64,000 bases of DNA from a virus. Taxonomy: Duplodnaviria > Caudoviricetes. The DNA is taken from positions 224,001-288,000 of IMG/VR virus record IMGVR_UViG_2595698293_000001, one strand, 5' to 3'. The notes beneath the pieces were generated by a model. That model did no database searches. It worked only from the letters and a program-made list of their open reading frames with translations, and had not been told where the DNA came from. Shown piece by piece: positions 21,633-55,605 of this stretch; the first letter of the stretch is position 1; every line of letters begins with the position of its first letter. Both the position numbers and the translations under genes were made by a program.

Positions 21633-22031
21633 ATGGCAAAGAAAAAGAAAAAGATTGACAGAACATTACGGCATCCTAAGTACAGAGTTCAATATCATGA
21701 TAGTGAACAGATAGAAGTAGATTTGGGCGGTGGAAGTAGGTTAAAATATGCTAACAATGCATATGTGAATAATAAATTTGTATTAACATTGTATAAAAAT
21801 TTCAAGTATCATTCAAGTAATGATCTTCTTGATTATACATTTATTAGTACTGAAGAAGAATTATTTCAGCATTCTTTGTTGTGTGCAGTTGATATTGATT
21901 TTTCGGTACTGGTACAGTTACAGAAAGCTTTAAAGCATCAAATGTATCAATATATTTTTCCAAATAAACTGGAAATGATTAATATGAAGAATAGATATGT
22001 TTTGGATATTACTGGTACTGAAATTGTTTAA
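21633..22031 (+). CDS. family A (FQ motif) protein
   Basis: TEEELFQHSLL. Confidence 0.75.
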   Translation: MAKKKKKIDRTLRHPKYRVQYHDSEQIEVDLGGGSRLKYANNAYVNNKFVLTLYKNFKYHSSNDLLDYTFISTEEELFQHSLLCAVDIDFSVLVQLQKALKHQMYQYIFPNKLEMINMKNRYVLDITGTEIV

Positions 22032-22055
22032 TAACAATATAACTAATGAGCCAAA

Positions 22056-22583
22056 ATGAAAATTAATATCAAAGATGATAGTGAATTAAGTACATTAGTA
22101 CAAGATATATGTACTGTATACAATAAGATGAAATCTGTAACTAAAGATAAAGGAAGGATAGATGTATTACGCGGTGAATACAGATTTAATCATATATTGA
22201 GTAAAAATTCATCTGTACTGCAAACTTGCATTAGTAATGTTCAATACAATATCATTGAATACGGTTCTTTCTTTTCTGATTACTGCTATGATAATATGAT
22301 AAAGATTGATAGTACTGGTAATATTTTGGATGTTTATTTAGCACCGAGGGGTGCAGTATTAGAAATTATTAAAATTGGTGATATTAATAACACATTGGAA
22401 CACATTGAATTGCCTCCAAGGTCTACTGAGATGACAGAGGAATATGTATTTCAATTAAGTACAGTACATGAATATTTTTCTGCTATTATAATGATCACAG
22501 AGTTAAAGAAAAGAATTAATCGCAAGATGCGTGTTCATGTACCTGATTTCAGTACTGAATTGATCAAGTACATTGAGATATAA
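22056..22583 (+). CDS. family A protein
   Basis: TEEYVFQLSTV; paralog of 34116 ORF. Confidence 0.8.
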   Translation: MKINIKDDSELSTLVQDICTVYNKMKSVTKDKGRIDVLRGEYRFNHILSKNSSVLQTCISNVQYNIIEYGSFFSDYCYDNMIKIDSTGNILDVYLAPRGAVLEIIKIGDINNTLEHIELPPRSTEMTEEYVFQLSTVHEYFSAIIMITELKKRINRKMRVHVPDFSTELIKYIEI

Positions 22584-22662
22584 AATGTCTTGACATTGGC
22601 TTTTCTTTTTGCTATTATAATTATAAACCCTTATTATACTTTACAAAGAGTAAGAAAATAAA

Positions 22663-23307
22663 ATGACTACAAGTGAATTATCTGAACTGTTTGGGATTTT
22701 ATCAGTACTGATGCCTAAGATTGAAAGTAATCCACATCATTTATTGAGTCCAAAAGCACAATCTATTTTTAGTATTGAAAAGCGAGTGGATCTGGAATAC
22801 CATGAATACCATGCTTATTTCAAAGCTATTGAAAATGGTGAGATCATACCAAAAGTATATCATGTTAGTATTAATGAATTGAGTTCTTACACTCGCTGCG
22901 AAGTTACTCGTCGTGGAAATTATTATAATACTACTTATACTTGTGAACGAGTATTAACAGTGAAAGAAAATTCACATGATTTTAATGTAATTAATCTTAC
23001 TGATGATGGTAAAGTGAAAGAAGTTATGTATCATCCTACATCAGAAGAAATTATGATCAACAAAGGTGGTGTTTGGGGAAGTCGACATAAAATTAAAATT
23101 CCTAATTACAAAGACTATGATGATGTTGATGCTTACATGTTTCAGTTAAGTACTGTAAAGGATTTTAGTACTGAAGAAGAAAATATTATGAAGTTCTTTA
23201 TGTTCTTACAGAAGTTTAAAAGTTCACGAAAGCGTTTGCCTAAATTTAGTACAAACATTGAACTGATTTCATTATCTAAACTGCTAGAGTTATATGACCA
23301 AAATTGA
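22663..23307 (+). CDS. family A protein
   Basis: DAYMFQLSTV; own promoter at 22590. Confidence 0.8.
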   Translation: MTTSELSELFGILSVLMPKIESNPHHLLSPKAQSIFSIEKRVDLEYHEYHAYFKAIENGEIIPKVYHVSINELSSYTRCEVTRRGNYYNTTYTCERVLTVKENSHDFNVINLTDDGKVKEVMYHPTSEEIMINKGGVWGSRHKIKIPNYKDYDDVDAYMFQLSTVKDFSTEEENIMKFFMFLQKFKSSRKRLPKFSTNIELISLSKLLELYDQN

Positions 23308-23587
23308 ATACTATTCAGTACTGAATATTCAAGACTTATGTTATGATATGTATAATAATGCGAGTGTTTACAGAAAAGCAATGCGTTCAGTACTGAATAC
23401 CTTAGTCGAAGAATTCAATTCAAAATATAAAGGAACGCAGGTACTGATAAAAATTGATAATGGTGTTTATAAAACTGTAATTAAATATTATACTATATCA
23501 TATATCAATTGTGCATTCAAAACTGATATTGGATGGAGAAGATATTTTGATGAAACTACTATGATAGTCGGGAATAAAAATGACTAA
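23294..23587 (+). CDS. family B protein
   Basis: MTKIEYYSVLNIQ...EFNSKYKG. Confidence 0.8.
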   Translation: MTKIEYYSVLNIQDLCYDMYNNASVYRKAMRSVLNTLVEEFNSKYKGTQVLIKIDNGVYKTVIKYYTISYINCAFKTDIGWRRYFDETTMIVGNKND

Positions 23588-23864
23588 AGATGAATATTTT
23601 TCAGTACTGAATATACAGGAAGTATGTAATGAATTATACTTCACTCCTTATACAGAAGTATTGCGTTCTGTACTACAATCACTACAGAAGGAATTCAATG
23701 CAAAGTACAGAGGAACTCCAGTACGAACAAAAAACAATGAATTTGTCTATGAGACGGTAATTGATCATTATATTATATCGTTCATTGATTGTGTGTTCAA
23801 AACTGATATTGATATTGGATGGAACAGATATTTTGATGAAACCGTTATGATCATTGGGAAATAA
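23580..23864 (+). CDS. family B protein
   Basis: MTKDEYFSVLNIQ...EFNAKYRG. Confidence 0.8.
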   Translation: MTKDEYFSVLNIQEVCNELYFTPYTEVLRSVLQSLQKEFNAKYRGTPVRTKNNEFVYETVIDHYIISFIDCVFKTDIDIGWNRYFDETVMIIGK

Positions 23865-23869
23865 AAAAA

Positions 23870-24151
23870 ATGACTAAAGATGAATATAAATCTGTTTCTA
23901 TTATTCAAAAAATATGTGTTTCTATTTACAGAAATACAGAATACGGTACTGCTATGCGTTCAGTACTGAATATGTTATCAAAAGATTTTACTCATAAGTA
24001 TCATGGCCGAAAGATAAAAATTATTAATATTAATGGAGAATATTACACAAAAATTAAAAAGTACAAGATTACATTAGGTGAATGTGTATTTCGTACTAAA
24101 TCAGGAGTTAACGGTTTATTTTTTGGAAATTATACGATGCTATGTGATTAA
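23870..24151 (+). CDS. family B protein
   Basis: MTKDEYKSV...DFTHKYHG. Confidence 0.8.
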   Translation: MTKDEYKSVSIIQKICVSIYRNTEYGTAMRSVLNMLSKDFTHKYHGRKIKIININGEYYTKIKKYKITLGECVFRTKSGVNGLFFGNYTMLCD

Positions 24152-24221
24152 AAATGGTTTTTTACTTACCATGTTAGTACATAGATAAAACAACCATGAT
24201 ATTTAATATAAAGGAAACGTT

Positions 24222-24476
24222 ATGAAACAATTTTTTAAAACCATCTGGAATTCACTGTTCAGTAAAAATACCAGTAATGTCGTTGATACTGTTGATAGTA
24301 CTGTTAGTACCAATACACAAAGTACATACATTCCGGTATACAGTGATGAAAATCCATTCTATACAGAAGAAGAGAAGAAACAATGGATTGAAGATGAAGT
24401 ACGTTTACGCAAAGAAGAAGCAGAGCGTATGAAACTTGAAAAAAGTAATAAGAAATGTAACCAATGCAACAAATAA
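24222..24476 (+). CDS. hypothetical protein
   Basis: AAGGA RBS. Confidence 0.7.
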   Translation: MKQFFKTIWNSLFSKNTSNVVDTVDSTVSTNTQSTYIPVYSDENPFYTEEEKKQWIEDEVRLRKEEAERMKLEKSNKKCNQCNK

Positions 24477-24633
24477 ATTCTGACTATTATTACAGTACTG
24501 TACAGTACAATATGTATTTAAGTTCTTTTATGAATTTAAAAACGAGTTCAATAGACAAAGACGTGTATGAAAGTATATTGGGTTGTTTGAATCATAGTAT
24601 TCATAAATTATATAAATTAAAAGGTACGTTGGG

Positions 24634-24816
24634 ATGATTGATAATTACCAACAAATAAAAACACTATCTGAGTATTATAAAATTGATACTAATTATATAG
24701 TACGGATGCCTGTAGAGTTAGATGAATCTTTACATAAGTGGAGATATTTTTCAGTATTAAATAATTTGAATTTTGTCATTAATAGTTTATATGAATTACA
24801 AGGTAAATTACCATGA
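24634..24816 (+). CDS. small protein (QGKLP C-terminus shared with 25563 ORF)
   Basis: ORF; shared motif. Confidence 0.6.
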   Translation: MIDNYQQIKTLSEYYKIDTNYIVRMPVELDESLHKWRYFSVLNNLNFVINSLYELQGKLP

Positions 24817-25160
24817 AATATAAACGATGTGATGATGGATATCTGGCTGCCAGGTATTACAGTAAATTTGTATCTACAACTAATAAAGATGATCTGCTAT
24901 TACTTATGTTAGTAGGTACAATTAAACAAGAAATGGCGGCTGAAAGATATATCAACACGTTAATACATAAAATGGTACTTAAACACAGGCTGGTTAAAAT
25001 TAGAACTATTGGTGGTTATGAACCTTATAAGTTTGGTGTATTTTATCTTGACAATACTAATTTAGTTGCTTCTGATTCTATTATAATTTGTGAGTCCATT
25101 GAAAAAGCGGTTCAGTACTGTAAAAATAATAATTATAGATTGATTGGTACAGAGGTATGA
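24813..25160 (+). CDS. family C protein with extra C-terminal domain
   Basis: LLMLVGTIKQE. Confidence 0.7.
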   Translation: MKYKRCDDGYLAARYYSKFVSTTNKDDLLLLMLVGTIKQEMAAERYINTLIHKMVLKHRLVKIRTIGGYEPYKFGVFYLDNTNLVASDSIIICESIEKAVQYCKNNNYRLIGTEV

Positions 25161-25163
25161 ATT

Positions 25164-25415
25164 ATGATGAGTTTAAAATTTTATGACCATTTACCAAAAA
25201 GTATTAAATTCAGTAATATACAATATTATACATTAGAAGATTGGGAAATGCATTATCGAAAGATACTCGGTTTTTCTTTGGGATTTGAAGAAACTGAGTA
25301 CCAGGAAATACATTATAATTATTATATTGAAATATTAAAATGTATGATACATAAAGATTATGAAATTTTAATTTCCAGATATATAGTGACGAGTAAAAAT
25401 GGATCAAGAAACTAA
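25164..25415 (+). CDS. hypothetical protein (family C-like)
   Basis: GAGG RBS. Confidence 0.65.
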   Translation: MMSLKFYDHLPKSIKFSNIQYYTLEDWEMHYRKILGFSLGFEETEYQEIHYNYYIEILKCMIHKDYEILISRYIVTSKNGSRN

Positions 25416-25566
25416 GAAGAAGTTAACAGAACTTATTGAAGCATCTATTAATGCTGAGGGTGCTTTCTTTGAGCACTACGATAAGTACGATAAAAAAGGA
25501 CGAGTATTGTGGGAGAAGCGTAATAGTACCAGGAAGGAGTTGGATGAATTTATTTCTAAATTGTGA
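25399..25566 (+). CDS. small protein (55 aa, not in track)
   Basis: MDQETKKKLTELIE...; fills the gap with overlaps on both sides. Confidence 0.6.
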   Translation: MDQETKKKLTELIEASINAEGAFFEHYDKYDKKGRVLWEKRNSTRKELDEFISKL

Positions 25567-25781
25567 GGAAATTAGTGAATAGTCCAAATGGTCGTGCATC
25601 TATATCACAACTATATTTGTATAATCTTAAATTATCTTATATTATAAAATCAATAAAAACTAAAAATAACTTCATTGGTTTGCCTAATTATGTAAGAGAA
25701 ATGGAGATAGATTCATTTGTTAAGGATATGATAGAAATATATAAAATTCAAGGTAAGTTACCACCGTTTGATGAGTTGTAA
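25563..25781 (+). CDS. small protein (QGKLP motif)
   Basis: GTGA overlap. Confidence 0.6.
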   Translation: MRKLVNSPNGRASISQLYLYNLKLSYIIKSIKTKNNFIGLPNYVREMEIDSFVKDMIEIYKIQGKLPPFDEL

Positions 25782-25882
25782 TACTATCCACTTCATACCC
25801 ACCGTGTGTCTTTTTAAACACTTGACTTCCAGTCAAATCTGTGTTATTGTTATTATTGTAATAATCAAAATGGTACAATATA

Positions 25883-26167
25883 ATGACCAAAAGTGAATAC
25901 TATTCTGTACTGAATATTCAGGAAGCGTGTAAAGGTTTATACTTTACTCCTTATATTGAAGTGATGCGTTCTGTATTTAAATTACTACAGAAGGAATTTT
26001 CTACAAAGTACAAAGGAACACTAATTTCTGTAAAAAACGATAATGAAGTTTTTGATGTTTTAATTAATAGTTATAGTATAACATTTATTCTTTGTTATTT
26101 TGAAACATCGGGTTCTATAGCAGTGACAAGAAAATATTTTGATTCTGATACAAAGATTAGGAAATAA
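25883..26167 (+). CDS. family B protein
   Basis: MTKSEYYSVLNIQ. Confidence 0.8.
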   Translation: MTKSEYYSVLNIQEACKGLYFTPYIEVMRSVFKLLQKEFSTKYKGTLISVKNDNEVFDVLINSYSITFILCYFETSGSIAVTRKYFDSDTKIRK

Positions 26168-26227
26168 AAATAGTGTAATCTTTTATACATCCAACAATCT
26201 TTAAAAATAACGGGTAATTACTGTATC

Positions 26228-26503
26228 ATGACTGAACAAGAATACAAATGCACAACGCATGTAATCGGAGTATTAGGTGATATTGAATCAAAGTATCGCA
26301 GTACAATGCTTACTATCTTATCAATGCTACAAACTGATTTTAATAAAAAGTACGCACAAAGAAAAGTACAAATAACTGTAGGTTCAGGTGTTAAAACCAA
26401 AACAATCAAGGGGTATTGTATTGGATTTAGATATGTGTATTTTACTATTACCAAAGGATATAAAAGAGAGTATTTTAATGAATTCACTACTTTGTGTTCA
26501 TAA
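26228..26503 (+). CDS. family B protein
   Basis: MTEQEY...DFNKKY. Confidence 0.75.
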   Translation: MTEQEYKCTTHVIGVLGDIESKYRSTMLTILSMLQTDFNKKYAQRKVQITVGSGVKTKTIKGYCIGFRYVYFTITKGYKREYFNEFTTLCS

Positions 26504-26512: not shown

Positions 26513-26779
26513 ATGAAAAGAGATAAACATTATAAACAAATTGAATTCATTTATAAACTCGCACGATATAGTGATGCTTACACTTATATTTCTTATAAAT
26601 CATATCTCAAAGAAGTTGTTGTTTTGTATCTTAAAAAGTACAAATCAAAAAAGGTTGATTCTGGTACTTACATCATAGACGATATTAAATTTTTATACGG
26701 TGAACTTCGTGTATACCAGAGAAGAGTAAGTGATGGTATGCTTTTGTGGGATTCTATCTGGAATACAAAAATAGATTAA
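26513..26779 (+). CDS. hypothetical protein (family B-like)
   Basis: GAGGG RBS. Confidence 0.7.
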   Translation: MKRDKHYKQIEFIYKLARYSDAYTYISYKSYLKEVVVLYLKKYKSKKVDSGTYIIDDIKFLYGELRVYQRRVSDGMLLWDSIWNTKID

Positions 26780-26781
26780 TT

Positions 26782-27210
26782 ATGAAAACATTAGAAGAAT
26801 TAATTAGAATAAGTAAAAATATCATTTATATTAACAATGTATTCAGTACTGGAAAAGGTCATCTTATTGTTGATGATGTTAGATACTTTTATTCTGAGTC
26901 TGCTCATATATGGTACAGTTCATTTTATGTTCGTGATTTTGAACCCGAGTGGGATTGTATTTCTTATTCGAGGGGTTTAAGTACAGTCACAACTATTTCT
27001 TCTATGAAGGAACATACTCACACACTCGATTGTTCAGAATTTGATTTAAGTGAAGAGATGCTTTTTCAGTACAGTACCATGTATTCCAGTCTTGAGCTGG
27101 AAGCTATATTCGTTAAAGTGTACCTGGATAAATTCACTGATATAGATGAATTTTGTATAAATCTCTCACAATACCCTTCGTATTGCGAAAAACTTGGATT
27201 AATACCATGA
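26782..27210 (+). CDS. family A protein
   Basis: SEEMLFQYSTMY. Confidence 0.75.
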   Translation: MKTLEELIRISKNIIYINNVFSTGKGHLIVDDVRYFYSESAHIWYSSFYVRDFEPEWDCISYSRGLSTVTTISSMKEHTHTLDCSEFDLSEEMLFQYSTMYSSLELEAIFVKVYLDKFTDIDEFCINLSQYPSYCEKLGLIP

Positions 27211-27623
27211 GTTACAGAAGTTCATTATTTTTTGCACAAAAGGTATACTATACCGTTCAGTGCTTTTATAATTCAGAATTTGATAATACAGTACTAAAAA
27301 AGACAGGAAATGACAGTGTATTTGATTACTACGATTATCAGAATTTATTTTTTGGTTATCCGGTCTTCAATACTACACAGATGGATTGTCATATTTCTCT
27401 TGATTTTTCTTTTATGACATTCAATTCATATAGTACAGACTATATGTCACTCGATTCTGTGGTTAGATTAAATTCTGATAACATAGTGTTAATTCATAAT
27501 AGCGAGGATTATGATTTCTTTAGTAATTCTTATACTGAAAAAGAATTGTTTGTTTGTACTGTATTTTCGTACCTAATTCTTAATAAATGCAAACCATTCT
27601 ATCTGGATTTGAGTATAATTTAA
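27207..27623 (+). CDS. family A-related protein (paralog of 28245 ORF)
   Basis: ATGA overlap; FSYL..KC.PFY.DL C-terminus. Confidence 0.75.
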   Translation: MSYRSSLFFAQKVYYTVQCFYNSEFDNTVLKKTGNDSVFDYYDYQNLFFGYPVFNTTQMDCHISLDFSFMTFNSYSTDYMSLDSVVRLNSDNIVLIHNSEDYDFFSNSYTEKELFVCTVFSYLILNKCKPFYLDLSII

Positions 27624-27642: not shown

Positions 27643-28245
27643 ATGCTAGAGAATTTTTATTCAAATTTAATGAAAGCTTTCCCTACAAAAGAGGAAGTTG
27701 GATTAGGCCATGTATCAGATTTGGATTATGATATTTACGTTGCTATGGTAATTGTTGGTCAAGCAAAAAGTGTTCATGAGGTTCATGAACGATGGACAAA
27801 ACTGGCGAATGAAAGAAATTATACAAATGAATTGAAATCTGAACCTGAAATACAAGGTAGATTGTTTATTGTAAAAAATACAAGAACATTAGAATTAATT
27901 TTGATACCTACTAAAGAAACATTTAATGAGATATCAAAAACCGAAGAATATCTTTTGAATAATCATGGAATTTCTTATAAATCAAAAGACTGGATTATTG
28001 ATACAGTACTGTACGTTTCTCGCAAAGATAGAGGATTAACAAGAGTACATGATTTATATTCTTCTGTTCTAAAAATTGTTACACCAAATGAATTTGGAAT
28101 ATTCAATTCAGAACAATATGATATAATCATGAACTGTATTAATGATAAAATATCAAGATGTTATAATCGTTGTGTATATCCAAATGGATATCATAGTAAT
28201 AAAAATTTTCACTACAAATACAATGAAATATGGAATAAAGTATAA
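27643..28245 (+). CDS. hypothetical protein
   Basis: 200-aa ORF, GAGGGG RBS. Confidence 0.8.
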   Translation: MLENFYSNLMKAFPTKEEVGLGHVSDLDYDIYVAMVIVGQAKSVHEVHERWTKLANERNYTNELKSEPEIQGRLFIVKNTRTLELILIPTKETFNEISKTEEYLLNNHGISYKSKDWIIDTVLYVSRKDRGLTRVHDLYSSVLKIVTPNEFGIFNSEQYDIIMNCINDKISRCYNRCVYPNGYHSNKNFHYKYNEIWNKV

Positions 28246-28640
28246 TGAACAACAACGAATCACTTTTTCTTGCTAAAAAGATATATAACACTGCACAACT
28301 TTTTTATAATTCAAGTTTCAACTGTACTGGATTTAAGAGAAGTTTTGTGGGGCTGGATTATGAATACAAATTTTCCAATTTAATTGTTTTCAGTACTGAA
28401 AATACATATGGCTGTTTCTTTTCTTTTAAAAAAAATATTATAATTTTTGATAATGAATTCGCCGGTATAATTGAATGTGAATACGAAGATGGAACACGTA
28501 ATTATCTTTCCCGTATAATGAATTTACATCAACAGTGCCAACCTGTGAATACAAAGGATAATATGTCAGTACTGACAATTTTTTCGTACTTAGCCCAGAT
28601 GAAGTGTCAACCATTCTATATGGATTTACGCATAATTTAG
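28245..28640 (+). CDS. family A-related protein (paralog of 27207 ORF)
   Basis: SLFLAKKIYNTAQLFYNS. Confidence 0.75.
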   Translation: MNNNESLFLAKKIYNTAQLFYNSSFNCTGFKRSFVGLDYEYKFSNLIVFSTENTYGCFFSFKKNIIIFDNEFAGIIECEYEDGTRNYLSRIMNLHQQCQPVNTKDNMSVLTIFSYLAQMKCQPFYMDLRII

Positions 28641-28652: not shown

Positions 28653-28952
28653 GTGTTAAAAATTCACTGTCGTAACGGTATATTTTTTTGTAACACTACA
28701 ATACATAACGGAAAGTTGATTTATCATAAAAGTGAGGATTCTTTTTATTATACCACCCATGTGAATTCTAAAAAAATGCACAAAATTATTGATTATTCAG
28801 GATTACAAGAGGATGAACTTTTCCAGATGCATTTAGTATATGATAAAGTACTTAATTTGGATTTTTACACTTTAACATATATTCAGACCAAAATGCGAGA
28901 ATTATCAAAAATTTATACTGCTGATTTTAAGATTATAACACCTGAAATATAA
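28653..28952 (+). CDS. family A protein
   Basis: QEDELFQMHLVY. Confidence 0.75.
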   Translation: MLKIHCRNGIFFCNTTIHNGKLIYHKSEDSFYYTTHVNSKKMHKIIDYSGLQEDELFQMHLVYDKVLNLDFYTLTYIQTKMRELSKIYTADFKIITPEI

Positions 28953-28953: not shown

Positions 28954-29289
28954 ATGAATAAAAATATAAGAACCAATAATATTATGTGGTGCACTGTATA
29001 TAAACTGATTTATACTACTTATGCTCTTATACGATTGGTTAGCAAAAATAATACAAAAATCGATGTTTATTTCTATAATGACGGTACCAAAGAACACTAC
29101 TTAACAGAGGGTAATGATATATATGAAATTCATGATTTATGCTCTTTGAGCACAGAAGAACATTTCCAATTACTCACAGTATGGGATTATAAAACAGATA
29201 TTGATTTTGTTATTTCTGCACATAAACGCATAGAGGAACTTAAAAAGGATGAGTTTTTCAATCGTGTCGATACAGTGATTGAATATTAA
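28954..29289 (+). CDS. family A protein
   Basis: STEEHFQLLTVW. Confidence 0.75.
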   Translation: MNKNIRTNNIMWCTVYKLIYTTYALIRLVSKNNTKIDVYFYNDGTKEHYLTEGNDIYEIHDLCSLSTEEHFQLLTVWDYKTDIDFVISAHKRIEELKKDEFFNRVDTVIEY

Positions 29290-29456
29290 AAGAGCGTACA
29301 AAAAAATGATTTATGATAAAAATGTTGAGTATATAACCCAGTTCATAGTACTATCATACACCAGATATGGCAGTTCTGGTTCCAGGTATATTGATAGTAT
29401 ACTTAAACAACATATTGAGTTTAATGTTATCAATAACAAGAAAGGTTAATATAGAA

Positions 29457-29921
29457 ATGGGTTTTGATACAAGAGAAGGTGCACTCTTTTATGCAAATCA
29501 AATATGTAATTTAGTTTTGTATTACAAAAGTAATGAAAATTTATTAGATGAATATAAATGTTTGTATTCTAAAGTCGATGATGTATTAAGAATTTCTTTA
29601 GAAATAGAACACAAAAACCCATTCCCTGAATCAATTATTGATTTTCAAGAAAAATATATTAATTATATTCCAGGTAAAGAATGTGAATTAATTCTTTCCG
29701 ATGTATTTGGCCATAGTATCAAAATCGATCCCAGTGTTCTAAATGAAGAATTGAATACCAGTACAGAAGAAGGTTATTTCCAGAAGAGTACTATATACAA
29801 TTCTGATGAATTGTTCTGCATTATTCTTTTTGAAAATATAGTGCGTAAAATTCCTTTTCAATTCTACATTGATTTAGAAACAATTAATTACCTAATAAAA
29901 GAGAAAAATTATGAGATATAA
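29457..29921 (+). CDS. family A protein
   Basis: TEEGYFQKSTIY; start corrected. Confidence 0.75.
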   Translation: MGFDTREGALFYANQICNLVLYYKSNENLLDEYKCLYSKVDDVLRISLEIEHKNPFPESIIDFQEKYINYIPGKECELILSDVFGHSIKIDPSVLNEELNTSTEEGYFQKSTIYNSDELFCIILFENIVRKIPFQFYIDLETINYLIKEKNYEI

Positions 29922-38032: not shown

Positions 38033-38041
38033 GGTGATATT

Positions 38042-38416: not shown

Positions 38417-38421
38417 AGGAT

Positions 38422-40300: not shown

Positions 40301-40310
40301 AAAACAAACT

Positions 40311-43424: not shown

Positions 43425-43427
43425 AAC

Positions 43428-46851: not shown

Positions 46852-47339
46852 AAGAAATTATTGAACTAATAGAATTAATACAATCATGTATAAGTTCATA
46901 TAAACTTGCTGCCGGTGAACATAATTTGAATGCTGATTTTGATTTAGTAGTCAATAATCAAAAGAAATGCATTCACTTGATTAAAAAATCCAGTACTAAA
47001 ACAATCAAACACACAGCACTCATGATAGCTTCTTCACATCCTGCTAAAAAATATAATTCAAATATTGCTAATATAAGTTCACTGTACAAACCAGAAAGTA
47101 CATCTTCATATATCAGTTCAATTAAAAGTGAATTAGATTTTCATAAATGCACTTTGGATTCTTATGAAGAATTAGAATTTCAGTACAGTACGATAATTAC
47201 ACGAAGTGATATTTTTATAATTCAATGCTTATTATATTCAATTGATTTTAAAGATATTGTGTACATGACAAATGATTTCACGAAATACAATTATATTGAA
47301 ATACTCCGATTATTAAAGGACAAACTATGCCAAAATTAG
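46848..47339 (+). CDS. family A protein
   Basis: YEELEFQYSTII. Confidence 0.8.
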   Translation: MKEIIELIELIQSCISSYKLAAGEHNLNADFDLVVNNQKKCIHLIKKSSTKTIKHTALMIASSHPAKKYNSNIANISSLYKPESTSSYISSIKSELDFHKCTLDSYEELEFQYSTIITRSDIFIIQCLLYSIDFKDIVYMTNDFTKYNYIEILRLLKDKLCQN

Positions 47340-47920
47340 ATGCACAGTACTGTGATAAATTACTTAATGCATTGATTACTATACAGAAGAATATAAAAAA
47401 AGAAAAGAGTATTCAAATTTACTACAATGACAGTTATATTCTCGTACAATGCAACCCAGATGGGAATTATGTAGAGTTCAGTTTAAAGAAAGAAGATGTT
47501 CATGATTGTATTAGTATTGATTTACATGAAGCAACACCACAACAAAGTTTAAAAAATATCATTAAAGCATATAAAAGAACTACATATGCATTTGACACTT
47601 TAGTACACAGATATAAAACATTTTATTGTATGTTTGATACAGATGACTATGATTTTAATTTAGTGGGATTTGATGAAAATAATATAATTAACATTCCTTA
47701 TGACTTTGATGATGAATTATATTTTCAGTACAGTACTTTGTATAGTTTACCACCACAGAGCGTTCTTGAGCTTCATAAAAACATTCATAAAAAATGTAAA
47801 AATGAACTACCAATTAAAAGTGTAGTAAGAATTTCATATCTATCCATCGAATTAGATCAAAACGAAATGGATGAAATTTTGGAATCTTTGTATTCATTGG
47901 TTCCTGTGTTTAAGCATTAA
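47327..47920 (+). CDS. family A protein
   Basis: DDELYFQYSTLY. Confidence 0.8.
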   Translation: MPKLDAQYCDKLLNALITIQKNIKKEKSIQIYYNDSYILVQCNPDGNYVEFSLKKEDVHDCISIDLHEATPQQSLKNIIKAYKRTTYAFDTLVHRYKTFYCMFDTDDYDFNLVGFDENNIINIPYDFDDELYFQYSTLYSLPPQSVLELHKNIHKKCKNELPIKSVVRISYLSIELDQNEMDEILESLYSLVPVFKH

Positions 47921-47957
47921 AATCCCCCTTGACTGGGGTTTTTTTATTTGTTATAAT
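47919..47957 (+). terminator. terminator overlapping a sigma70 promoter
   Basis: CCCC-cTTGACt-GGGG-T7; TTGACT-17-TATAAT. Confidence 0.7.
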
Positions 47958-47976
47958 AAAAAATAGAGAATATAAA

Positions 47977-48603
47977 ATGAAAAAAGAATCATATAACATA
48001 CTTCGTGTATGTGAAAATTTAATATTGTTGTTACTGGCTTATAAGAAAAATATAAATTTAAGCAAGAAAATTCTTGATTATCATATTAATATTAATATTA
48101 CATGTAGTACTCATATTTCAATATATTTAAATATTAGTAATTTTGGTTCTATTACAACAACATCATCCAATATAATTTCATTTAATGCTGATAATATTCA
48201 ACCAGTTGAATTAAATTTACCAATTGAAGATATTAAAGGTGAAATGATTTATTTTGATGACCGATATTGTGAATATGATGTTAATAGTCCAAATTTAGTC
48301 GGAGCGTATTTAAAAAAATATGATCCTGATATTGATGGATACAATGAAACAAACTGCCATGAAGTAATGGAAAAGACGTATGATGAATGGGCTTTTCAGT
48401 ACAGTACATTATATGATTTTGTTCCAGATAAAGAAGATTATTTTTACTTGAAAAATTTCATGCATAAATTGGGTAACGAATTCGATTATACATATTCAAA
48501 TATTTTATTTGAATCAAAAGTGGATATTGTGAATCTAAAATCCGCAATTGATATATGTACCGAAACTGTTAAAAGGAAGATTGATGAAAACTCCGATATT
48601 TGA
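47977..48603 (+). CDS. family A protein
   Basis: YDEWAFQYSTLY; start corrected. Confidence 0.8.
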   Translation: MKKESYNILRVCENLILLLLAYKKNINLSKKILDYHININITCSTHISIYLNISNFGSITTTSSNIISFNADNIQPVELNLPIEDIKGEMIYFDDRYCEYDVNSPNLVGAYLKKYDPDIDGYNETNCHEVMEKTYDEWAFQYSTLYDFVPDKEDYFYLKNFMHKLGNEFDYTYSNILFESKVDIVNLKSAIDICTETVKRKIDENSDI

Positions 48604-49099
48604 AAAATCAAAGGAATATGCACAACGCATATCTGATTGTATTGAACTTATTCAATCAATGAGAAAAACTTTTTACGTAAATCACAAAGGTTCTTTTCGA
48701 TATCAACATGAAAATAATGGACTTATTACCATGAGCAGAGGCAAATCGCCTTTTGGTGAGGTTATATTAACATATGTACCAGATAATATTCATATTCCGT
48801 TCAATGATAATTATCTAATAGAAATATCAAATTATATTCCAGTACTAGATTATACAGAAGAAACCGAATTTCAATATAGTACTTTGTATAATAATGAAGA
48901 ATTGTTAATGCATTATATATATTCCATTCTATGGAATTTGAACATCAAAGGGAAAATTTATATAAACCAAAATATAAATTTAAGAACATATACAATGGCA
49001 TTGAAAAATATCAATAGTTATTTTCAGGACACAAATTATAATTTATATAAAGAATTGTGTAATAAAAAATTCAAATCAATGGAAATAAACTACTTATGA
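48584..49099 (+). CDS. family A protein
   Basis: TEETEFQYSTLY. Confidence 0.8.
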   Translation: MKTPIFEKSKEYAQRISDCIELIQSMRKTFYVNHKGSFRYQHENNGLITMSRGKSPFGEVILTYVPDNIHIPFNDNYLIEISNYIPVLDYTEETEFQYSTLYNNEELLMHYIYSILWNLNIKGKIYINQNINLRTYTMALKNINSYFQDTNYNLYKELCNKKFKSMEINYL

Positions 49100-49680
49100 T
49101 TGAAAGATATGAGTTTAGTACAAGAATATTAAATGAAGCACTCAAAAAAGTGCCATTAATTGTGGAAAAACATAGTAAATTATATTCTAAGTACAATAGT
49201 AATAGTACATTCAATGTTGGTATTAAAAATCAGAATTATGAAACTAACATTGATGATAGTTCCATTGAATATGGTTCAGCAAATGGTTCTTCATGGACAA
49301 TTGAATTTGACAATTCACTCCATGATTATTATAACTGGACACCAGAATATAATGAATTTAGCTTTAATACATCATCTGTTGCTTTTTTGGTTAGTAGTGA
49401 ACATATGTTGTACGCTCTTTATGATTTTAATACTGAAATTTTTATAATCGAAGACACCGATTTATCTTTTGAAGTAAATTGCATAGATTCGCTACGTGAA
49501 ATGATTTTTACATTACAACTGGAGTACTCAGATATTATTGAGACTGAATTACTATGGAGTATGCTATCACCGATGATTGAGTTTAAAAAGCTGTTGACAC
49601 CTGACAAAGATGTTGCTATTATATTTGAACCATATAGACAAGAGTTTTTAGAATTAAACCCAGAGATACCAAACGTATGA
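49096..49680 (+). CDS. family A-related protein
   Basis: degenerate motif LREMIFTLQLEY. Confidence 0.75.
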   Translation: MIERYEFSTRILNEALKKVPLIVEKHSKLYSKYNSNSTFNVGIKNQNYETNIDDSSIEYGSANGSSWTIEFDNSLHDYYNWTPEYNEFSFNTSSVAFLVSSEHMLYALYDFNTEIFIIEDTDLSFEVNCIDSLREMIFTLQLEYSDIIETELLWSMLSPMIEFKKLLTPDKDVAIIFEPYRQEFLELNPEIPNV

Positions 49681-50087
49681 TTCTATATCACTGTAGTACT
49701 GTAAAAATTGACAGCTTTTATATCCCCTTTGGTGGCTTACATTTTGGTGGTATTAATAGTGCTTTAGAAGCGGCGTTACGTAAGCTGAGAAGCCCACGAA
49801 ACACGTTGGATCACAAGGAGATACATATCCATAAATGTTTCGTGGAACTCGGTAAAACACAGCACAGTGAGGATTTGGGTGGTGAGGATTCGTGGAGAGC
49901 GGTGATCGATGAATGCTCACGATTAGGATTTAATTCAGTACAATATAAGAATGTATATGAACCTGATTCAGTACCTAGCTATATGATTTGGGACGCCAGT
50001 AGAGTAAAAATCATAGAAGTGGATTGTATTCATATGGATGACGCCGAACAAATACTGGAAGAATTTTATGATTCACATTGTACTTAA
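49677..50087 (+). CDS. ADP-ribosyltransferase-fold-like protein (putative)
   Basis: LYHCS...GLHFG...A and Y.N..E...SY motifs; internal promoter TTGACA-17-TATTAT at 49594. Confidence 0.5.
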   Translation: MILYHCSTVKIDSFYIPFGGLHFGGINSALEAALRKLRSPRNTLDHKEIHIHKCFVELGKTQHSEDLGGEDSWRAVIDECSRLGFNSVQYKNVYEPDSVPSYMIWDASRVKIIEVDCIHMDDAEQILEEFYDSHCT

Positions 50088-50107
50088 ACTAATACAGGTA
50101 ACGATTC

Positions 50108-50659
50108 ATGTCAGAACCAATAGAATATTTTAAAGCATGTTCTCGTTTGGTTAATTCAATTTCAAAGGATTTTTTATCAAGAAAACCAAAAGAGTATATT
50201 GATGATGTACTTGGATATAATTTTATATTATATTGTGGTTTTAGTTCATTAAGAATTTCAGTTGATGATGAAAACGAAACACCAGTACTTACAATTTTTA
50301 ATGTTGATTACATAACATGCAACCCAAAAGTATTTCATAAACCACGCTGGTGTATAACTAATATTGTTAACAGTGGTATTCAATGTGGTTTGGTGAAAAA
50401 AATTACCCACCGTTTTGATTCAGACGCTGAACTCATAGATTATGAGAATGATTTTAGTTCTAAGTTATTCTCTAATACTTTAACTGAAGAAGAATTTTTT
50501 CAGTACAGTACGGTACTGAAATTAAACACATTGGAATATTATCTGGAATGGAATAAAACTATAATGCAAGACAATACAAATGAAAAAGTTGTTTGGCATT
50601 GGTATTATGGTGATTTCATTTCAAAAGAAGCTATTGATGAATTATCGAAAAGAATATAA
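50108..50659 (+). CDS. family A protein
   Basis: TEEEFFQYSTVL. Confidence 0.8.
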   Translation: MSEPIEYFKACSRLVNSISKDFLSRKPKEYIDDVLGYNFILYCGFSSLRISVDDENETPVLTIFNVDYITCNPKVFHKPRWCITNIVNSGIQCGLVKKITHRFDSDAELIDYENDFSSKLFSNTLTEEEFFQYSTVLKLNTLEYYLEWNKTIMQDNTNEKVVWHWYYGDFISKEAIDELSKRI

Positions 50660-50672
50660 TAAGGATTAAAAA

Positions 50673-51161
50673 ATGATGCTTGACATTATCGGAAATTTAG
50701 ATATAGTTAATCAAATCATTCAATCAGCAATTGATGATATTAAGAAGAAGGAGATTGAAGTACGATGGAATTTCTTATCGTCTGATATTGGATACCTTGT
50801 TGATATTAGTGAACCAACAAAGAAACAAATGGTTGTACAAATCAATGCACTAAGTAACAGGCAATCTCTCTGTAAATTTTATATTACAAAGAATGGGATA
50901 ATTCTCAGATATAATAATAAATTGTTGTTTGAATACAAAAACAGTACTAAAACATTCATTACAAATTTATTTGATGAACCATTTTATATTGATGATTTAG
51001 AAAGTACTTTCTTTACTCAAAGATGTTTAAATTCGTTTGGTTCACTGGATAATATAGTATTTGATTATGATATCATGACTGAAACATTAAAGAAAACACA
51101 GGATTTATATTATGCCTACTTGGTGTTTACCCAAAAACGAGAAAATGCTAACACAGCCTGA
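50673..51161 (+). CDS. family A-related protein
   Basis: degenerate motif LESTFFTQ. Confidence 0.75.
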   Translation: MMLDIIGNLDIVNQIIQSAIDDIKKKEIEVRWNFLSSDIGYLVDISEPTKKQMVVQINALSNRQSLCKFYITKNGIILRYNNKLLFEYKNSTKTFITNLFDEPFYIDDLESTFFTQRCLNSFGSLDNIVFDYDIMTETLKKTQDLYYAYLVFTQKRENANTA

Positions 51162-51591
51162 CGATAGCGTATATAAGTGTATTGAGCATTTCGATTATTT
51201 TATTAATTCAAACAAAGAATTTATTGTGGTCGATTGTATACCATTGTATTTCATTAAATCCGATTCAAATACAATCAAAGAATTTAATATGTACTATGGT
51301 AGTGAATTTATATCAATTAAATTAATCAATAAATATTTGAAAAATTCTTATTCAATTGAAAGTTATTACAATGGAATATTTTTGCTCGGTATTAGTAATG
51401 AGTACATAAATTCAGTACTATTAAAATCAAACACAAATAAACCAGTTTATGCTGATCGAGAAGCATTCAATGAAATCGATTTCTTCCAGTATACATGTGG
51501 TGATGCTTATATACCATTACACACCAATACGATGTGTTTAGTTAAAGATAAATTGTTGGAGATTGAAAATGATTTCAAAAAATACTATTAA
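51145..51591 (+). CDS. family A protein
   Basis: NEIDFFQYT. Confidence 0.75.
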   Translation: MLTQPDDSVYKCIEHFDYFINSNKEFIVVDCIPLYFIKSDSNTIKEFNMYYGSEFISIKLINKYLKNSYSIESYYNGIFLLGISNEYINSVLLKSNTNKPVYADREAFNEIDFFQYTCGDAYIPLHTNTMCLVKDKLLEIENDFKKYY

Positions 51592-52060
51592 AACTGGAAT
51601 GCAATGTTTGATTGATTATTTTGAAAATCCAAAATCATACACTGAGGTACTGAAAGGTGATCACACATTTCATTACTACGGTGATGATATTCAGATTATA
51701 GTTGGATTTCATACATTAAAACTTTGTATTATTGATAATAAAAATTCAAATTGTTTTATTTTCTCTCCAGTAAAAATGCGAGAAGATGATATTTGCACCG
51801 AATTCGGTACTATTGTTGCTGTAATTGATGATGATGGTAGAAAAACACATGTATACGATACACTATTCATTGAAAGTTCTACTTTATTTCAATTGAGTTT
51901 AATTCACGATATTAATATTGATGGATTGGATATATTGATGTATAAGTACGGTGAATTACTTGAATTACTAGGGAAATCTAAAATTAATCACAATACTAAA
52001 TACATTAAAGAAGCATGTGAAAATTTATCAAAAGCTCACGTGCAATACTCTAACGAATAA
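51563..52060 (+). CDS. family A protein
   Basis: ESSTLFQLSLIH. Confidence 0.75.
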   Translation: MKMISKNTIKTGMQCLIDYFENPKSYTEVLKGDHTFHYYGDDIQIIVGFHTLKLCIIDNKNSNCFIFSPVKMREDDICTEFGTIVAVIDDDGRKTHVYDTLFIESSTLFQLSLIHDINIDGLDILMYKYGELLELLGKSKINHNTKYIKEACENLSKAHVQYSNE

Positions 52061-52578: not shown

Positions 52579-52582
52579 TATT

Positions 52583-52757: not shown

Positions 52758-53651
52758 ATGAAAGACTTTTTAAATTTCTCTGTACTATCTGTAAAAGAGC
52801 ACTTTGATATAATTAAAGGAAGCTCTTTAAGCAATCCACCATTTAATTCAATTCATAAAAAAACTTATAGAAATGCAATAATTTATGAACTAATGGACTA
52901 TGATATTTGTTTTTATAAACACGACGGTGATAGTACTGAATTTAGTATTCAGGATCATTCATTTAATCTACCGTGTTATTCATTAGTTGAATCAAGAAAT
53001 TATAGTTCTTATTGTTCACATGATTATTCGTACAGAAAAGATTTATACACAAATGAATTGTCTTACAAACAATTCACATTAAATGGTATTGATTATGCAA
53101 AAAACACATTTAATGCAAGTGTAAGATATCACAGTATTTCTGATAAAATCAAATACAACCGAATTCTTACTGACTATAATTACTGCATTCGTTCATTATA
53201 TAGTGATATCAATAATATAAGTGCAACTGCAATTGAATCAGAATTCTTCAACAGAAATTTTCAAATTTTAGAAAAATCTAAAATTAGTACTGGATTTGTA
53301 TTCGAATCTAATTTTGATATTAGTATACCAAAAGAAAATAATAATAAATTATTAACAAGTGTTCACGTTAATCTAAAGAAAGAAACAAAAGATAGTAACA
53401 CATTATTTGAAATGAAATGGAATTATGATGATAGATTGGTATTTGAATTAGATACTCCAGATGCAAGTATTATGCATTTATATAATACACTATACACATT
53501 TCAATCTGAATTGTTGTTTGGTAAAACCGATTATTATCATTTTAAAAATTCATTAATTTATCTGGAAAAAATATTAGAGTATTATAAATCAGAATTACCC
53601 ATAATCAGTATTGTGTTAGAAAATATTAAGAGGAACAAAGATGGAAACTAA
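52758..53651 (+). CDS. hypothetical protein
   Basis: 297-aa ORF. Confidence 0.8.
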   Translation: MKDFLNFSVLSVKEHFDIIKGSSLSNPPFNSIHKKTYRNAIIYELMDYDICFYKHDGDSTEFSIQDHSFNLPCYSLVESRNYSSYCSHDYSYRKDLYTNELSYKQFTLNGIDYAKNTFNASVRYHSISDKIKYNRILTDYNYCIRSLYSDINNISATAIESEFFNRNFQILEKSKISTGFVFESNFDISIPKENNNKLLTSVHVNLKKETKDSNTLFEMKWNYDDRLVFELDTPDASIMHLYNTLYTFQSELLFGKTDYYHFKNSLIYLEKILEYYKSELPIISIVLENIKRNKDGN

Positions 53652-53949: not shown

Positions 53950-53971
53950 ACTAACAAGAAGGATTAAAATT

Positions 53972-54358
53972 ATGCGTGATGAAAAGACAAGTAAAATTCT
54001 AAAAGCAATCGGTGGTGTTCTTATTATTGATGTAAAAGGAGAACCAAAACTTTGTGCTATGGAAGATCTAAAAAAATCAAAATTCTTTGATATTGGATCA
54101 CTCTTCAATGCTATCCGAGTGCTGAATAATAAAGAAGTTGAAGATTATGGTCTTAAATGGCCTACATACCGTGATGCTTCAGGTGAAATCAGCAATTCAT
54201 GGAAAACAATTCAGGAAGTACACAGTCGTTCTGATAATGATTGGGACTTTATCGTTGCTGTCTGTGAACAACTAAATGAAGAAGTACCTGAAGTACTGGA
54301 GAAATATATTGTATTACAAAATCTGGATAGTTTTCGTAATGGAACTTTGCAGTACTAA
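53972..54358 (+). CDS. hypothetical protein
   Basis: AAGGA RBS, start corrected. Confidence 0.75.
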   Translation: MRDEKTSKILKAIGGVLIIDVKGEPKLCAMEDLKKSKFFDIGSLFNAIRVLNNKEVEDYGLKWPTYRDASGEISNSWKTIQEVHSRSDNDWDFIVAVCEQLNEEVPEVLEKYIVLQNLDSFRNGTLQY

Positions 54359-54387
54359 TTAACAAAAAAACATAAAGGAATATAATA

Positions 54388-54675
54388 ATGAAAGAACAAG
54401 ATATGGATATGGAATACGATTTTATTAAAATTGAAGAAGGTGAAGAGAGTGAACAAGTAAGTACACAACTTGTTGCTAATACAAAACGTTCAATGATTGC
54501 CCGCAAACCAACCAGAACGCAGGAGGAATATGAATCGTTTATTGAATCAAAATACACAGAAGTCCATTATATGCAAGATGGTACACCATATGACGTCACC
54601 GTTACAGTACTGAAACCTGAAGTTAATGATCTTGAAGGTTTAAAACAGTGCTACGCATACCAAACACGTAGTTAA
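54388..54675 (+). CDS. hypothetical acidic protein
   Basis: AAGGA RBS. Confidence 0.75.
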   Translation: MKEQDMDMEYDFIKIEEGEESEQVSTQLVANTKRSMIARKPTRTQEEYESFIESKYTEVHYMQDGTPYDVTVTVLKPEVNDLEGLKQCYAYQTRS

Positions 54676-54684
54676 TATATTAAA

Positions 54685-54713
54685 GGCAGAGATGTACTTC
54701 TCTGCCAATTTTT
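54685..54713 (+). terminator. intrinsic terminator
   Basis: GGCAGAGA...TCTCTGCC then T tract. Confidence 0.6.
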
Positions 54714-54744
54714 AATTTAAAACAAAATAAGGTTTAGTAGATAT

Positions 54745-55605
54745 ATGAAATTATATTTTTTATTTTCTTTTGCTGAAGATATGTATGGATTTGCAGAAGT
54801 TGCAGAAAGTGATGGAATCTCATCACATACCAGGCATCAAAAACACCCACATGAGTTTTATAATAATTTATTCATGTTTATGCAATATAAAATTTTCTCA
54901 TCTGAATTTGATAATTTAGATCACCCATGGGAATTACCTTTAATTGATATTCCAGACGAATACGTATTTCAGTTCATGTTAATGGGTCTGGAAGACTATG
55001 ACTTAGTTGTTTATAACTACAGAACTAAACGCATTATGCTTGGAACTCACGATAGTTCCATTGTATATGTTTCAAGTACCAATGATGAGTTAGCGTCTGA
55101 TGAAGGTAATTATAGAAAATCTTATGGTTATATAGAAAATGATAATGATTTTATTTTAGATTTTCGTGTATCAGAAGAAGAAAGAAGAAAAAGAGAAACT
55201 TATCAAGTGGAGTTAAAACCAGATAATGGTTATAATGAAATTTTGGAAGTACTTAAACCATACTACCTTGATATTGTTTATAAGAAATATAAACGCCTGT
55301 TAAATCATCTTAGCGAAAAAGAACCAATTGGTTTTGAAACCAATTCATTACGTAATAGCATCATATTTCCACCTAGAGTAATGAAATATGGCGAGGTTTC
55401 TAAACACAAGATGAAACTATATCCCGATGATATTGAAGTTCTATATCATTCGTGGTTGAATAATGATGAACTATATGTAGAAAATAAAAAGTTAATGCGT
55501 ATAAGTAATAATGATGATAGATTGCTACAAGCGTGGTATAATGATTCATATTCTGCATTTACTGACAGTAATTCTGAGTATTGGAAGAACACAGGACAAA
55601 AATAA
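54745..55605 (+). CDS. hypothetical protein with family A-like motif near the N-terminus
   Basis: PDEYVFQFMLM. Confidence 0.8.
   Translation: MKLYFLFSFAEDMYGFAEVAESDGISSHTRHQKHPHEFYNNLFMFMQYKIFSSEFDNLDHPWELPLIDIPDEYVFQFMLMGLEDYDLVVYNYRTKRIMLGTHDSSIVYVSSTNDELASDEGNYRKSYGYIENDNDFILDFRVSEEERRKRETYQVELKPDNGYNEILEVLKPYYLDIVYKKYKRLLNHLSEKEPIGFETNSLRNSIIFPPRVMKYGEVSKHKMKLYPDDIEVLYHSWLNNDELYVENKKLMRISNNDDRLLQAWYNDSYSAFTDSNSEYWKNTGQK

Follow-up and report, generated by a model that had tools for sequence, protein, structure and literature searches.

The 64,000-nucleotide stretch of DNA analysed here (the window) is G000:224001-288000, part of the 345,809-bp viral record G000. Between positions 21582 and 52060 it carries 35 open reading frames (ORFs), all on the + strand, whose products share a short motif in which FQ follows acidic residues (FQ.[STNHL][LTC] in our motif scan). 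We estimate, with a probability of roughly 0.55, that this FQ family represents a lineage-specific, old tandem expansion of one small, acidic, soluble alpha/beta domain, forming a host-takeover or anti-defence arsenal in which the motif helix, alpha2, acts as keystone.

According to this reading, the paralogs would all be one domain of ~100-220 amino acids (aa), spread by old tandem duplication to ~51 copies. Alpha2 would start with an S/T N-cap and an E-E first turn, hold F-Q in the middle of a ten-residue helix and close with S-[TL]-Phi-Y, before running straight into a hydrophobic alpha3, a short strand and a C-terminal helix. This conserved C-terminal half would pack onto an N-terminal amphipathic helix and a beta-meander, both of which would have diverged almost beyond recognition. 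The genes would be transcribed early, from DNA adjoining the terminal repeat, and each paralog would be retained for a variable sheet and loop surface acting on a different host or defence component, with alpha2 as a keystone obligatory in every copy.

The FQ Motif Is Conserved at the Protein Level

The chance level of the motif was determined from 1000 residue shuffles of the + strand ORFs of at least 60 aa across the whole window. The loose pattern matched 36 of 146 ORFs, compared to a shuffle mean of 1.39 (maximum 8), and the strict form [DE][DE]..FQ.[STNH][LTC] matched 27, compared to a mean of 0.023, confirming as real the set of about 35 motif-bearing ORFs described in an earlier note on this DNA. 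No strict match was seen on the - strand of the window, and the 36th loose match (61563-62291) was rejected as a chance hit. The 35 members are 99-224 aa long, with FQ lying 35-84 aa (median 53) from the C-terminus. Lengths of up to 290 aa had originally been given, but the ORFs of about that size at the right edge (52758-53651 and 54745-55605), which also contain FQ, showed no family match even at E ≤ 100 and are not members.

Across the 48 motif-bearing copies of the genome, F is encoded by TTT (38) or TTC (10), Q by CAG (30) or CAA (18), and the motif Ser by both AGY (30) and TCN (14) codons, with E and T also using several codons. Given this synonymous variety, selection acts on the peptide, as was first proposed.

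The commonest coding of the motif, TTT CAG TAC AGT ACN, is skewed. Of the 20 Tyr codons that follow Gln, 18 are TAC, compared to 21% genome-wide (p = 8e-11), and the motif Gln is CAG in 30 of 48, compared to 27% genome-wide (p = 3e-7). AGTAC is also the most over-represented 5-mer of the genome (1485 vs. 976 expected, z = 16), followed by GTACT (1438 vs. 1025), with GTAC itself at 2520 vs. 1617 expected. Both the codon skew and the AGTAC excess would fit a DNA-level element, in which the nucleotide string TTTCAGTACAGTACT, containing AGTAC twice, is kept as a site for recognition, modification or recombination, with conservation of the peptide being secondary. However, ORFs outside the family encode Ser-Thr as AGT-ACN in 452 of 654 cases (69%) and Gln-Tyr as CAG-TAC in 69 of 212, so the skew is a property of the genome and not of the family. 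Ser alternates between AGY and TCN codons, and F, Q and S are invariant in GTAC-free members (e.g. TTT CAA CTA TCA TTA), which largely refutes such an element and leaves it very improbable.

The excess of GTAC and AGTAC(T) is found on both strands and is densest at window positions 1-26000, with 77-83 copies per 10 kb in the equivalent of the terminal repeat of the phage Muenster (see below) and ~30-45 elsewhere; a role of the string in modification or recognition could account for it. The motif coding of 50108-50659 (TTTCAGTACAGTACGGTACTGAAA) forms a near-perfect 24-nt palindrome at 50498-50521, which is terminator-like on the - strand and probably results from the bias towards GTAC.

Homology Extends Beyond the Motif in 16 of 35 Members

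The N-terminal parts of the members are hardly alignable, as the earlier note had observed, and BLASTP joins only 11 of them. A hidden Markov model (HMM) iterated from these 11 linked seeds recruited 22, 25, 26 and finally 29 window ORFs, with nearly full-length matches. The flanks were tested with the motif removed, and with the query and its BLAST-detectable relatives left out. The N-terminal part (N-part) alone was significant for 3 of 35 members using a profile from the 35 window copies, and for 12 of 35 using A2, the 149-sequence family alignment. The ~40 residues past the motif (C-part) alone were significant for 14 of 35 using A2, and what the paralogs have in common therefore exceeds the short module to which it had been limited. 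Either flank was significant in 16 of 35 members, with reversed controls giving 0 of 35 in both the N-part and the C-part tests. When the N-parts of 13 subfamilies were compared profile to profile, 5 of 78 pairs reached a probability of at least 90%, compared to 0 of 78 reversed targets, and seven subfamilies were linked.

Columns of A2 that are conserved far from the motif include an N-terminal amphipathic helix with a hydrophobic repeat and a Y-x-I-x-[YF]-N-P strand, as well as an Ile/Leu ahead of the motif, Leu positions in alpha3 and an F-Y-Phi-D strand. Judged by sequence comparison, the members at 38-42.9 kb, together with 26746, 29367 and 48548, make up the array core, a single family related over its full length. 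The database search turned up no longer fused or shuffled forms of the family, which is weak evidence.

The family HMM also matched homologues without the Gln or the whole motif, two in the window and one elsewhere in the genome. That at 27153-27623 (156 aa) reads EDYDFF-SNSY in place of the motif and matched the A2 HMM at E = 2.7e-4, with a ratio of nonsynonymous to synonymous differences per site (pN/pS) of 0.21. In that at 28245-28640 (131 aa; E = 3.5e-5, pN/pS 0.18) the motif is replaced, and the N-terminal helix, alpha3 and an FYxDL strand are retained. Both were outside the training set.

The Motif Is Predicted to Be an Integral Helix of One Domain

The product of 40822-41313 was modelled by AlphaFold2 with A2, at a predicted local distance difference test score (pLDDT) of 85 and a predicted template modelling score (pTM) of 0.83. 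This model has a helix at residues 8-26, four to six strands until residue 98, and the motif helix at 110-119, with S109 as its N-cap, followed by a helix (122-136), a strand (142-145) and a further helix (146-158); the motif and the next helix have a pLDDT of 93-97. The 42359-42856 product, modelled by AlphaFold with a 29-sequence alignment (pLDDT 68.6, pTM 0.61), showed the same order of elements. The topology common to the two models is helix, four to six strands, motif helix, hydrophobic helix, strand, helix. A hydrophobic helix past the motif, noticed at the outset, is seen both in the A2 columns and in the 40822-41313 model; this alpha3 is almost wholly hydrophobic and too short to span a membrane.

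In these models the motif is an integral, N-capped helix of one alpha/beta domain and not a detachable tag, as both embed it within a single domain. The modular library suggested in the earlier note thus stands in part: the large paralog set, the protein-level selection on the motif and the retention of all 35 copies (see below) hold, whereas a constant tag on unrelated bodies does not, given the integral helix and the flank homology of 16 of 35 members.

A search of BFVD with the 40822-41313 model gave eight matches at E ≤ 0.001, all uncharacterised, including proteins of 121Q and SP27 (Escherichia) and RaK2; weaker rows came from GAP32, Yersinia fHe-Yen9-03 and -04, Erwinia pEa_SNUABM_47 and Serratia BF. 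The BFVD models of the RaK2, 121Q and SP27 proteins (124-202 aa) had template modelling (TM) scores of 0.5-0.6 across 156-185 columns, and the matches include proteins of 195-205 aa at TM 0.41-0.60. These models were made independently, and they suggest, without proving it, that the fold is common to the long members too. A sequence profile search of the PDB returned one row (E = 1.2), and the predicted fold, which is confidently modelled, is without a PDB counterpart. The nucleases PvuII and MspI and DXO1 were among the weak Foldseek rows, and a PD-(D/E)xK nuclease was rejected as the structural similarity of the core was not found.

The string EEGYFQG, present in 38976-39398 and 40822-41313, resembles a tobacco etch virus (TEV) protease site. 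The motif might then be a cleavage signal, as the earlier note had raised, with an ExxYxQ-G/S-like string cut by a TEV/3C-type or prohead protease to free two halves. However, E..Y.Q[GS] fits only 2 of 35 members, the residue past Q being mostly Y or L, and the site is modelled as the well-ordered helix 110-119, not as an accessible extended segment. Peptidase_C4 (PF00863) had no matches in G000; a Peptidase_C3 (PF00548) search was uninformative, its control itself being silent. In the accessible text on RaK2 (PMC3622015), the gel positions of virion proteins fit their predicted masses, and every virion protein detected is encoded in one of two other clusters, of ~82 kb and ~20 kb. A cleavage signal is barely credible.

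Protein Properties and Searches for Function

The 35 members have a median isoelectric point (pI) of 4.97 and a median net charge of -8. A pI below 6 was found for 30 of the 35, for 43 of 111 other window ORFs and for 120 of 133 database representatives of the family. A transmembrane-like stretch occurs in one of 35 members, within a probable 5' over-extension of the ORF.

Searches of Pfam with 10 and then 149 members found no shared family, none being matched by more than 2 of 149. The PADLOC defence library gave five families, each matched by 1 of 149 members at E ≥ 8.5e-4, none of them credible. AbiH (PF14253) reached a protein-atlas score of 0.90 with 152 shared features, which was below the bar, and was rejected: Pfam matches it in 0 of 149 members, and a second paralog had no such match (best score 0.77). 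Resemblances to the "aromatic-x-S-T-S" of ADP-ribosyltransferases and to the E-E helix of Nudix proteins had no support in the fold search, and a beta-clamp-binding QLxLF peptide would need to be unstructured, the motif being helical in the models.

Alpha2 holds every polar residue that is strongly conserved in the family, a pattern known from the active or ligand sites of very diverged families. The copies could thus share a small-ligand or catalytic site, handling the same chemistry, ligand or nucleic-acid moiety through an E-E/Q/S cluster with differing specificity. This appears decidedly unlikely, as no conserved polar residues elsewhere in the domain would complete the site, ~50 copies would be unusual for an enzyme, and no Pfam family goes beyond the two members mentioned above.

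The literature on RaK2, GAP32, 121Q, paralogs, Alcyoneusvirus transcriptomes and jumbo-phage expansions or anti-defence gave no description of the family. The motif strings FQYST, EEGYFQ and FQLST led to unrelated papers only, and the accessible part of the phAPEC6 literature held nothing relevant.

Distribution, Duplication and Selection

Genome-wide, the motif scan found 43 ORFs and the A2 HMM 46, with a union of 51, all on the + strand; 35-37 of these ~51 copies are inside the window. The 12 to 14 members outside it lie mostly at 159-224 kb, across the terminal-repeat stretch, with twelve ORFs within G000:159623-224020 and isolated ones at G000:1002-1400 and 64801-65223. The best-matching paralog was the adjacent family member in 10 of 51 cases (null mean 1.95, maximum 10, in 2000 permutations), and no paralog pair scored above 50 bits. 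Because neighbours are often the best match and no pair exceeds this score, the duplications are both tandem and old.

The phage Muenster has 34 profile matches to the family, and 35 of 35 window members have intact orthologues there, at 88-99.8% nucleotide identity. Pooled over the 35 members, pS was 0.089 and pN 0.023, giving a pN/pS of 0.26, the same ratio as for other ORFs; at the time scale separating the window from Muenster there was no sign of faster protein evolution in members than in other ORFs. As every orthologue is intact and the ratio is 0.26, each copy is individually maintained.

A related genome (G001; 358,663 bp, G+C 0.356) has 14 HMM matches, 13 of them with the FQ motif, plus one motif-only ORF, and its family members form two groups, as in G000. 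Among 1.84 billion representatives, a family profile (A1) matched 133 clusters, mostly covering profile positions ~5-150; 16 of the matches reached E ≤ 1e-10 but none E ≤ 1e-30. Nineteen of the 133 are near-identical to window ORFs, with the remaining 114 at 20-57% identity, and cluster look-up placed 10 distant representatives on assembled contigs of 3.6-109 kb. A word-index protein search with A1 returned five proteins only, whilst tblastn of distant representatives against a phage collection gave six Alcyoneusvirus records or nothing. Related-locus searches found no relative for P0128 in viral contigs, nor for P0034 in metagenome contigs. A degenerate pattern of the motif DNA found two viral contigs, one of which led to G001. 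The family is confined to RaK2-like jumbo phages, of several genera.

The commonest motif coding string also occurs on the - strand at 944-969 of L002, a 7,011-bp IMG/VR contig with no A1 match.

The Array Lies Beside the Terminal Repeat

By megablast, six Alcyoneusvirus records (Klebsiella jumbo phages, including Muenster, K64-1, RCIP0023, phiKp_21 and KP13-7) matched 38000-52000 at 96-97% identity across the whole 14 kb. The genes beneath this match are all annotated as hypothetical in these records, except one putative ADP-ribosyltransferase and one membrane protein. The same alignment sets window position 38001 at Muenster 36492, so that the Muenster terminal repeat, annotated at 1-20030, ends at ~21539 in the window. 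At this point the G+C content falls from ~0.36 to ~0.28, and a strong 13-pair hairpin with a T-run (21537-21569) lies at the boundary, upstream of the first family gene, which starts at 21582, just past the Muenster-equivalent repeat end. Inside the array, at 47919-47957, a hairpin and, directly after it, TTGACT-17-TATAAT (extended -10 TG) could serve as a paired terminator and promoter. Its promoter-like site (47929-47957) and hairpin (47919-47942) are just upstream of the Muenster-annotated start of 47929-48603.

In CBB, a RaK2-like phage, a block of short hypothetical ORFs beside the terminal repeat was proposed from predicted promoters as an early host-takeover region (accessible text of PMC5259590). 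From the position of the array, from CBB and from other terminal-repeat phages we infer that the FQ genes are expressed early, and their products are probably diversified host-takeover or anti-defence binders.

Structural or Shared Function of Alpha2

All 149 aligned sequences have both F and Q, the E-E pair is conserved in ~90% and S in 138 of 149, despite a mean column identity of 8% in A2. On a helical wheel of the modelled helix, E110, E111, F114, Q115, S117 and T118 would fall in one ~160-degree arc, and the opposite positions 113, 116, 119 and 120 are hydrophobic but variable, as would be expected for a core-packing face. One conserved face opposite a variable hydrophobic one would fit an adaptor library, in which the exposed face of alpha2 (E, E, F, Q, S) docks all paralogs on one shared hub (a phage or host protein, a protease or a modifying enzyme) and the variable remainder recruits targets. 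The Gln-less copies also favour this, since their persistence under purifying selection implies that the fold does not strictly need Gln. On the other hand, no partner is known, the motif lies in the best-ordered part of the model and abuts a buried helix, and the rivalry of ~50 proteins for one hub needs explanation. The bodies are at least partly homologous rather than shuffled modules, and [ST]-E-E is also the usual look of a plain helix N-cap. We therefore regard an adaptor library as doubtful. Slightly more doubtful still is its combinatorial form, in which the exposed E-E-x-x-F-Q-x-S face would plug ~50 paralogs into a common hub, such as a protease, a modifying enzyme or the transcription machinery, and host or defence proteins, a different one for each paralog, would be captured by the diverged sheets. 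If true, this would be a combinatorial adaptor system like the F-box families, a kind not described for bacteriophages.

Taking the helix by itself, a purely structural role for alpha2 comes close to an even chance; F may be a simple core anchor, and the [ST]-E-E start may be no different from other helix N-caps. A site with a shared function is a serious possibility, at clearly less than even odds.

Several results weigh against our preferred reading, an expansion of one alpha/beta domain with alpha2 as keystone. The other core positions swap freely among hydrophobics, unlike the invariant F and Q, and 3 of 51 genomic copies lack the Gln and are still under purifying selection, which is more than a keystone role alone predicts. 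For 19 of 35 members, mainly short (28.6-34.1 kb) and long (42.8-48.6 kb) ones, the motif alone is statistically demonstrable, and it is the sole link to the family for 45683, 51112 and 51563. All 133 database clusters carry the motif, a figure that is biased because most of the information of the A1 profile comes from it. The two proteins modelled are from the well-connected core, and family alignments were used for each, so a single fold for all members is not independently proven by the models. As regards early expression, sigma-70-like sites (156 and 142) were not above the chance level of shuffled sequences (166 and 152), and a search of sequencing runs yielded nothing but wastewater metagenomes, filed as RNA-Seq although they may be DNA. 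Finally, no target, partner or activity is known for the family.

Members Along the Array

All members described here carry the motif, and those other than 22663-23307, 28954-29289, 34116-34649, 45683-46294, 51112-51591 and 51563-52060 were recruited by the iterative HMM. The first gene past the terminal-repeat boundary, 21582-22031 (149 aa, STEEELFQHSLL), has a Muenster orthologue at 98.7% identity, and for 22056-22583 (175 aa, MTEEYVFQLSTV; phrog_18780) the N-part alone gave E = 0.006. The acidic pair is degenerate in 22663-23307 (214 aa, VDAYMFQLSTV), which was unrecruited by the iterative HMM and matches G000:182685-183071 by BLASTP (E = 4e-5), and in 34116-34649 (177 aa, YDAYIFQLSTT), which bears the motif and matches 22056-22583 by BLASTP over 171 aa (E = 1e-6). 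Both the N-part and the C-part were significant, and BLASTP links were found, for 26746-27210 (154 aa, LSEEMLFQYSTM) and for 29367-29921 (STEEGYFQKSTI; phrog_9317 at E = 4e-44), the latter being 184 aa as the longest ORF, with a true start that is probably later. The short members are 28653-28952 (99 aa, LQEDELFQMHLV), 29911-30246 (111 aa, MQDDELFQYSLI), 30320-30685 (121 aa, also MQDDELFQYSLI) and 33779-34114 (111 aa, LSEEEEFQYSLV), together with 28954-29289 (111 aa, STEEHFQLLTV), which has the motif and a BLASTP match to G000:200263-200805 (E = 9e-4) and was unrecruited by the iterative HMM.

Six core members were also linked by BLASTP, with both flanks significant. These are 38042-38416 (124 aa, STEEGYFQASLM), 38422-38820 (132 aa, LTEEGYFQYSTI), 38976-39398 (140 aa, CTEEGYFQGSLI, one of the two TEV-like strings), 39764-40300 (178 aa, NTEEDIFQYSTV; phrog_12674), and the two modelled proteins, 40822-41313 (163 aa, ISEEGYFQGSTI, pLDDT 85, with the BFVD matches) and 42359-42856 (165 aa, DTEEGWFQYSTL, pLDDT 69). 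BLASTP and the C-part support 39385-39780 (131 aa, LSEESYFQHSTL) and 41736-42359 (207 aa as the longest ORF, QTEEERFQYSTV), whilst both flanks were significant for 40311-40832 (173 aa, NIEELAFQYSTE) and 41267-41797 (176 aa, FSEELAFQYSTL).

Neither flank was significant alone for the long members 42804-43424 (206 aa, ALDEWKFQLSTL) and 45112-45690 (192 aa, ELESLLFQHNTL). The other long members are 43428-44036 (202 aa, YTEEMFFQNSLL; phrog_22855 at E = 1.5e-96), 44033-44596 (187 aa, CPEEQLFQYSTI), which BLASTP also links, 44568-45152 (194 aa, TWEEEMFQLSLV; C-part E = 5e-4), 46288-46851 (187 aa, CIESTAFQLSTE), 47327-47920 (197 aa, FDDELYFQYSTL; C-part E = 0.008) and 47929-48603 (224 aa as the longest ORF, TYDEWAFQYSTL). 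In the same part of the array lie 46848-47339 (163 aa, SYEELEFQYSTI), 48548-49099 (183 aa, YTEETEFQYSTL; N-part E = 1e-5) and 50108-50659 (183 aa, LTEEEFFQYSTV). Motif, size and position make 45683-46294 (203 aa, EFEALLFQYSTE) a probable member, with an HMM E of 0.042 despite its being in the training set. The last in the array, 51563-52060 (165 aa, ESSTLFQLSLI), is likewise probable: it has the motif and an HMM E of 1.4e-4, but was in the training set, and it was unrecruited by the iterative HMM. Membership of 51112-51591 (159 aa, FNEIDFFQYTCG), which has the motif and an HMM E of 11, is doubtful.

Other Genes in the Window

A second paralog family, of eight ORFs of ~90-100 aa, lies within 23294-26503 and 32378-33244, with starts at 23294, 23580, 23870, 25883, 26228, 32378, 32635 and 32939; its member 23294-23587 has no Pfam match. 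Several sets of two or three short ORFs, detected by BLASTP, are interleaved with the FQ genes. The Muenster orthologue of 49677-50087 is annotated, from an HHpred match, as a putative ADP-ribosyltransferase. Neither hmmscan with Pfam nor phmmer with PDB sequences gave a match for the 49677-50087 product, nor did the other array genes without the motif match Pfam or PDB sequences. Three ORFs (27643-28245, 56345-56956 and 60369-60638) had no blastn match in the Muenster locus and are gene-content differences between phages that are otherwise 96-99% identical.

Comparison With Known Systems

PHROG holds the same proteins, often as full-length matches, chiefly in phrog_12674 (95 of 149 members at E ≤ 0.001) and phrog_9317 (85 of 149), with ~20 smaller groups. 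The family is split there into at least 23 groups, all unannotated ("unknown function"), with no record of the shared motif, of the copy number or of a domain model.

F-box and poxvirus ankyrin-PRANC families consist of many paralogs with a constant docking motif and variable binders. The comparison is one of how such families work, with no relation in sequence or fold; in the FQ family, unlike these, invariant and variable parts belong to a single domain, and there is no known hub. Host-takeover modules of small early proteins lie near terminal repeats in the SPO1 terminal redundancy and the T5 pre-early region. The FQ array is like them in its place beside a terminal repeat and in its tightly packed short ORFs, on one strand, with mostly acidic products. 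The SPO1 and T5 modules are made up of unrelated small genes, whereas one family forms most of the FQ block, for which early timing is suggested by analogy.

According to the accessible text of a jumbo-phage overview, which is silent on the FQ family, Bacillus phage G has a ~35-copy zinc-ribbon expansion (PMC7824862). Both cases have one small domain in dozens of copies in one giant phage genome, but the FQ family lacks zinc ligands and matches no known fold, and it occurs in several RaK2-like genera rather than in one phage. For RaK2, the accessible text reports that nearly 10% of gene products are paralogues, without describing them (PMC3622015).

The FQ family accounts for about 1 in 10 genes of a 346-kb Klebsiella phage lineage that is a therapeutic candidate, and is conserved across several RaK2-like genera and more than 100 uncultured sequence clusters. 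The invariant six-residue helix face, set against free divergence elsewhere, offers a simple handle to separate a structural role from that of a shared partner. If the members are anti-defence or host-takeover factors, they would provide dozens of related probes of host systems. Irrespective of that, much of the "dark" early region in RaK2-like phages would be accounted for once the function of the family is understood.

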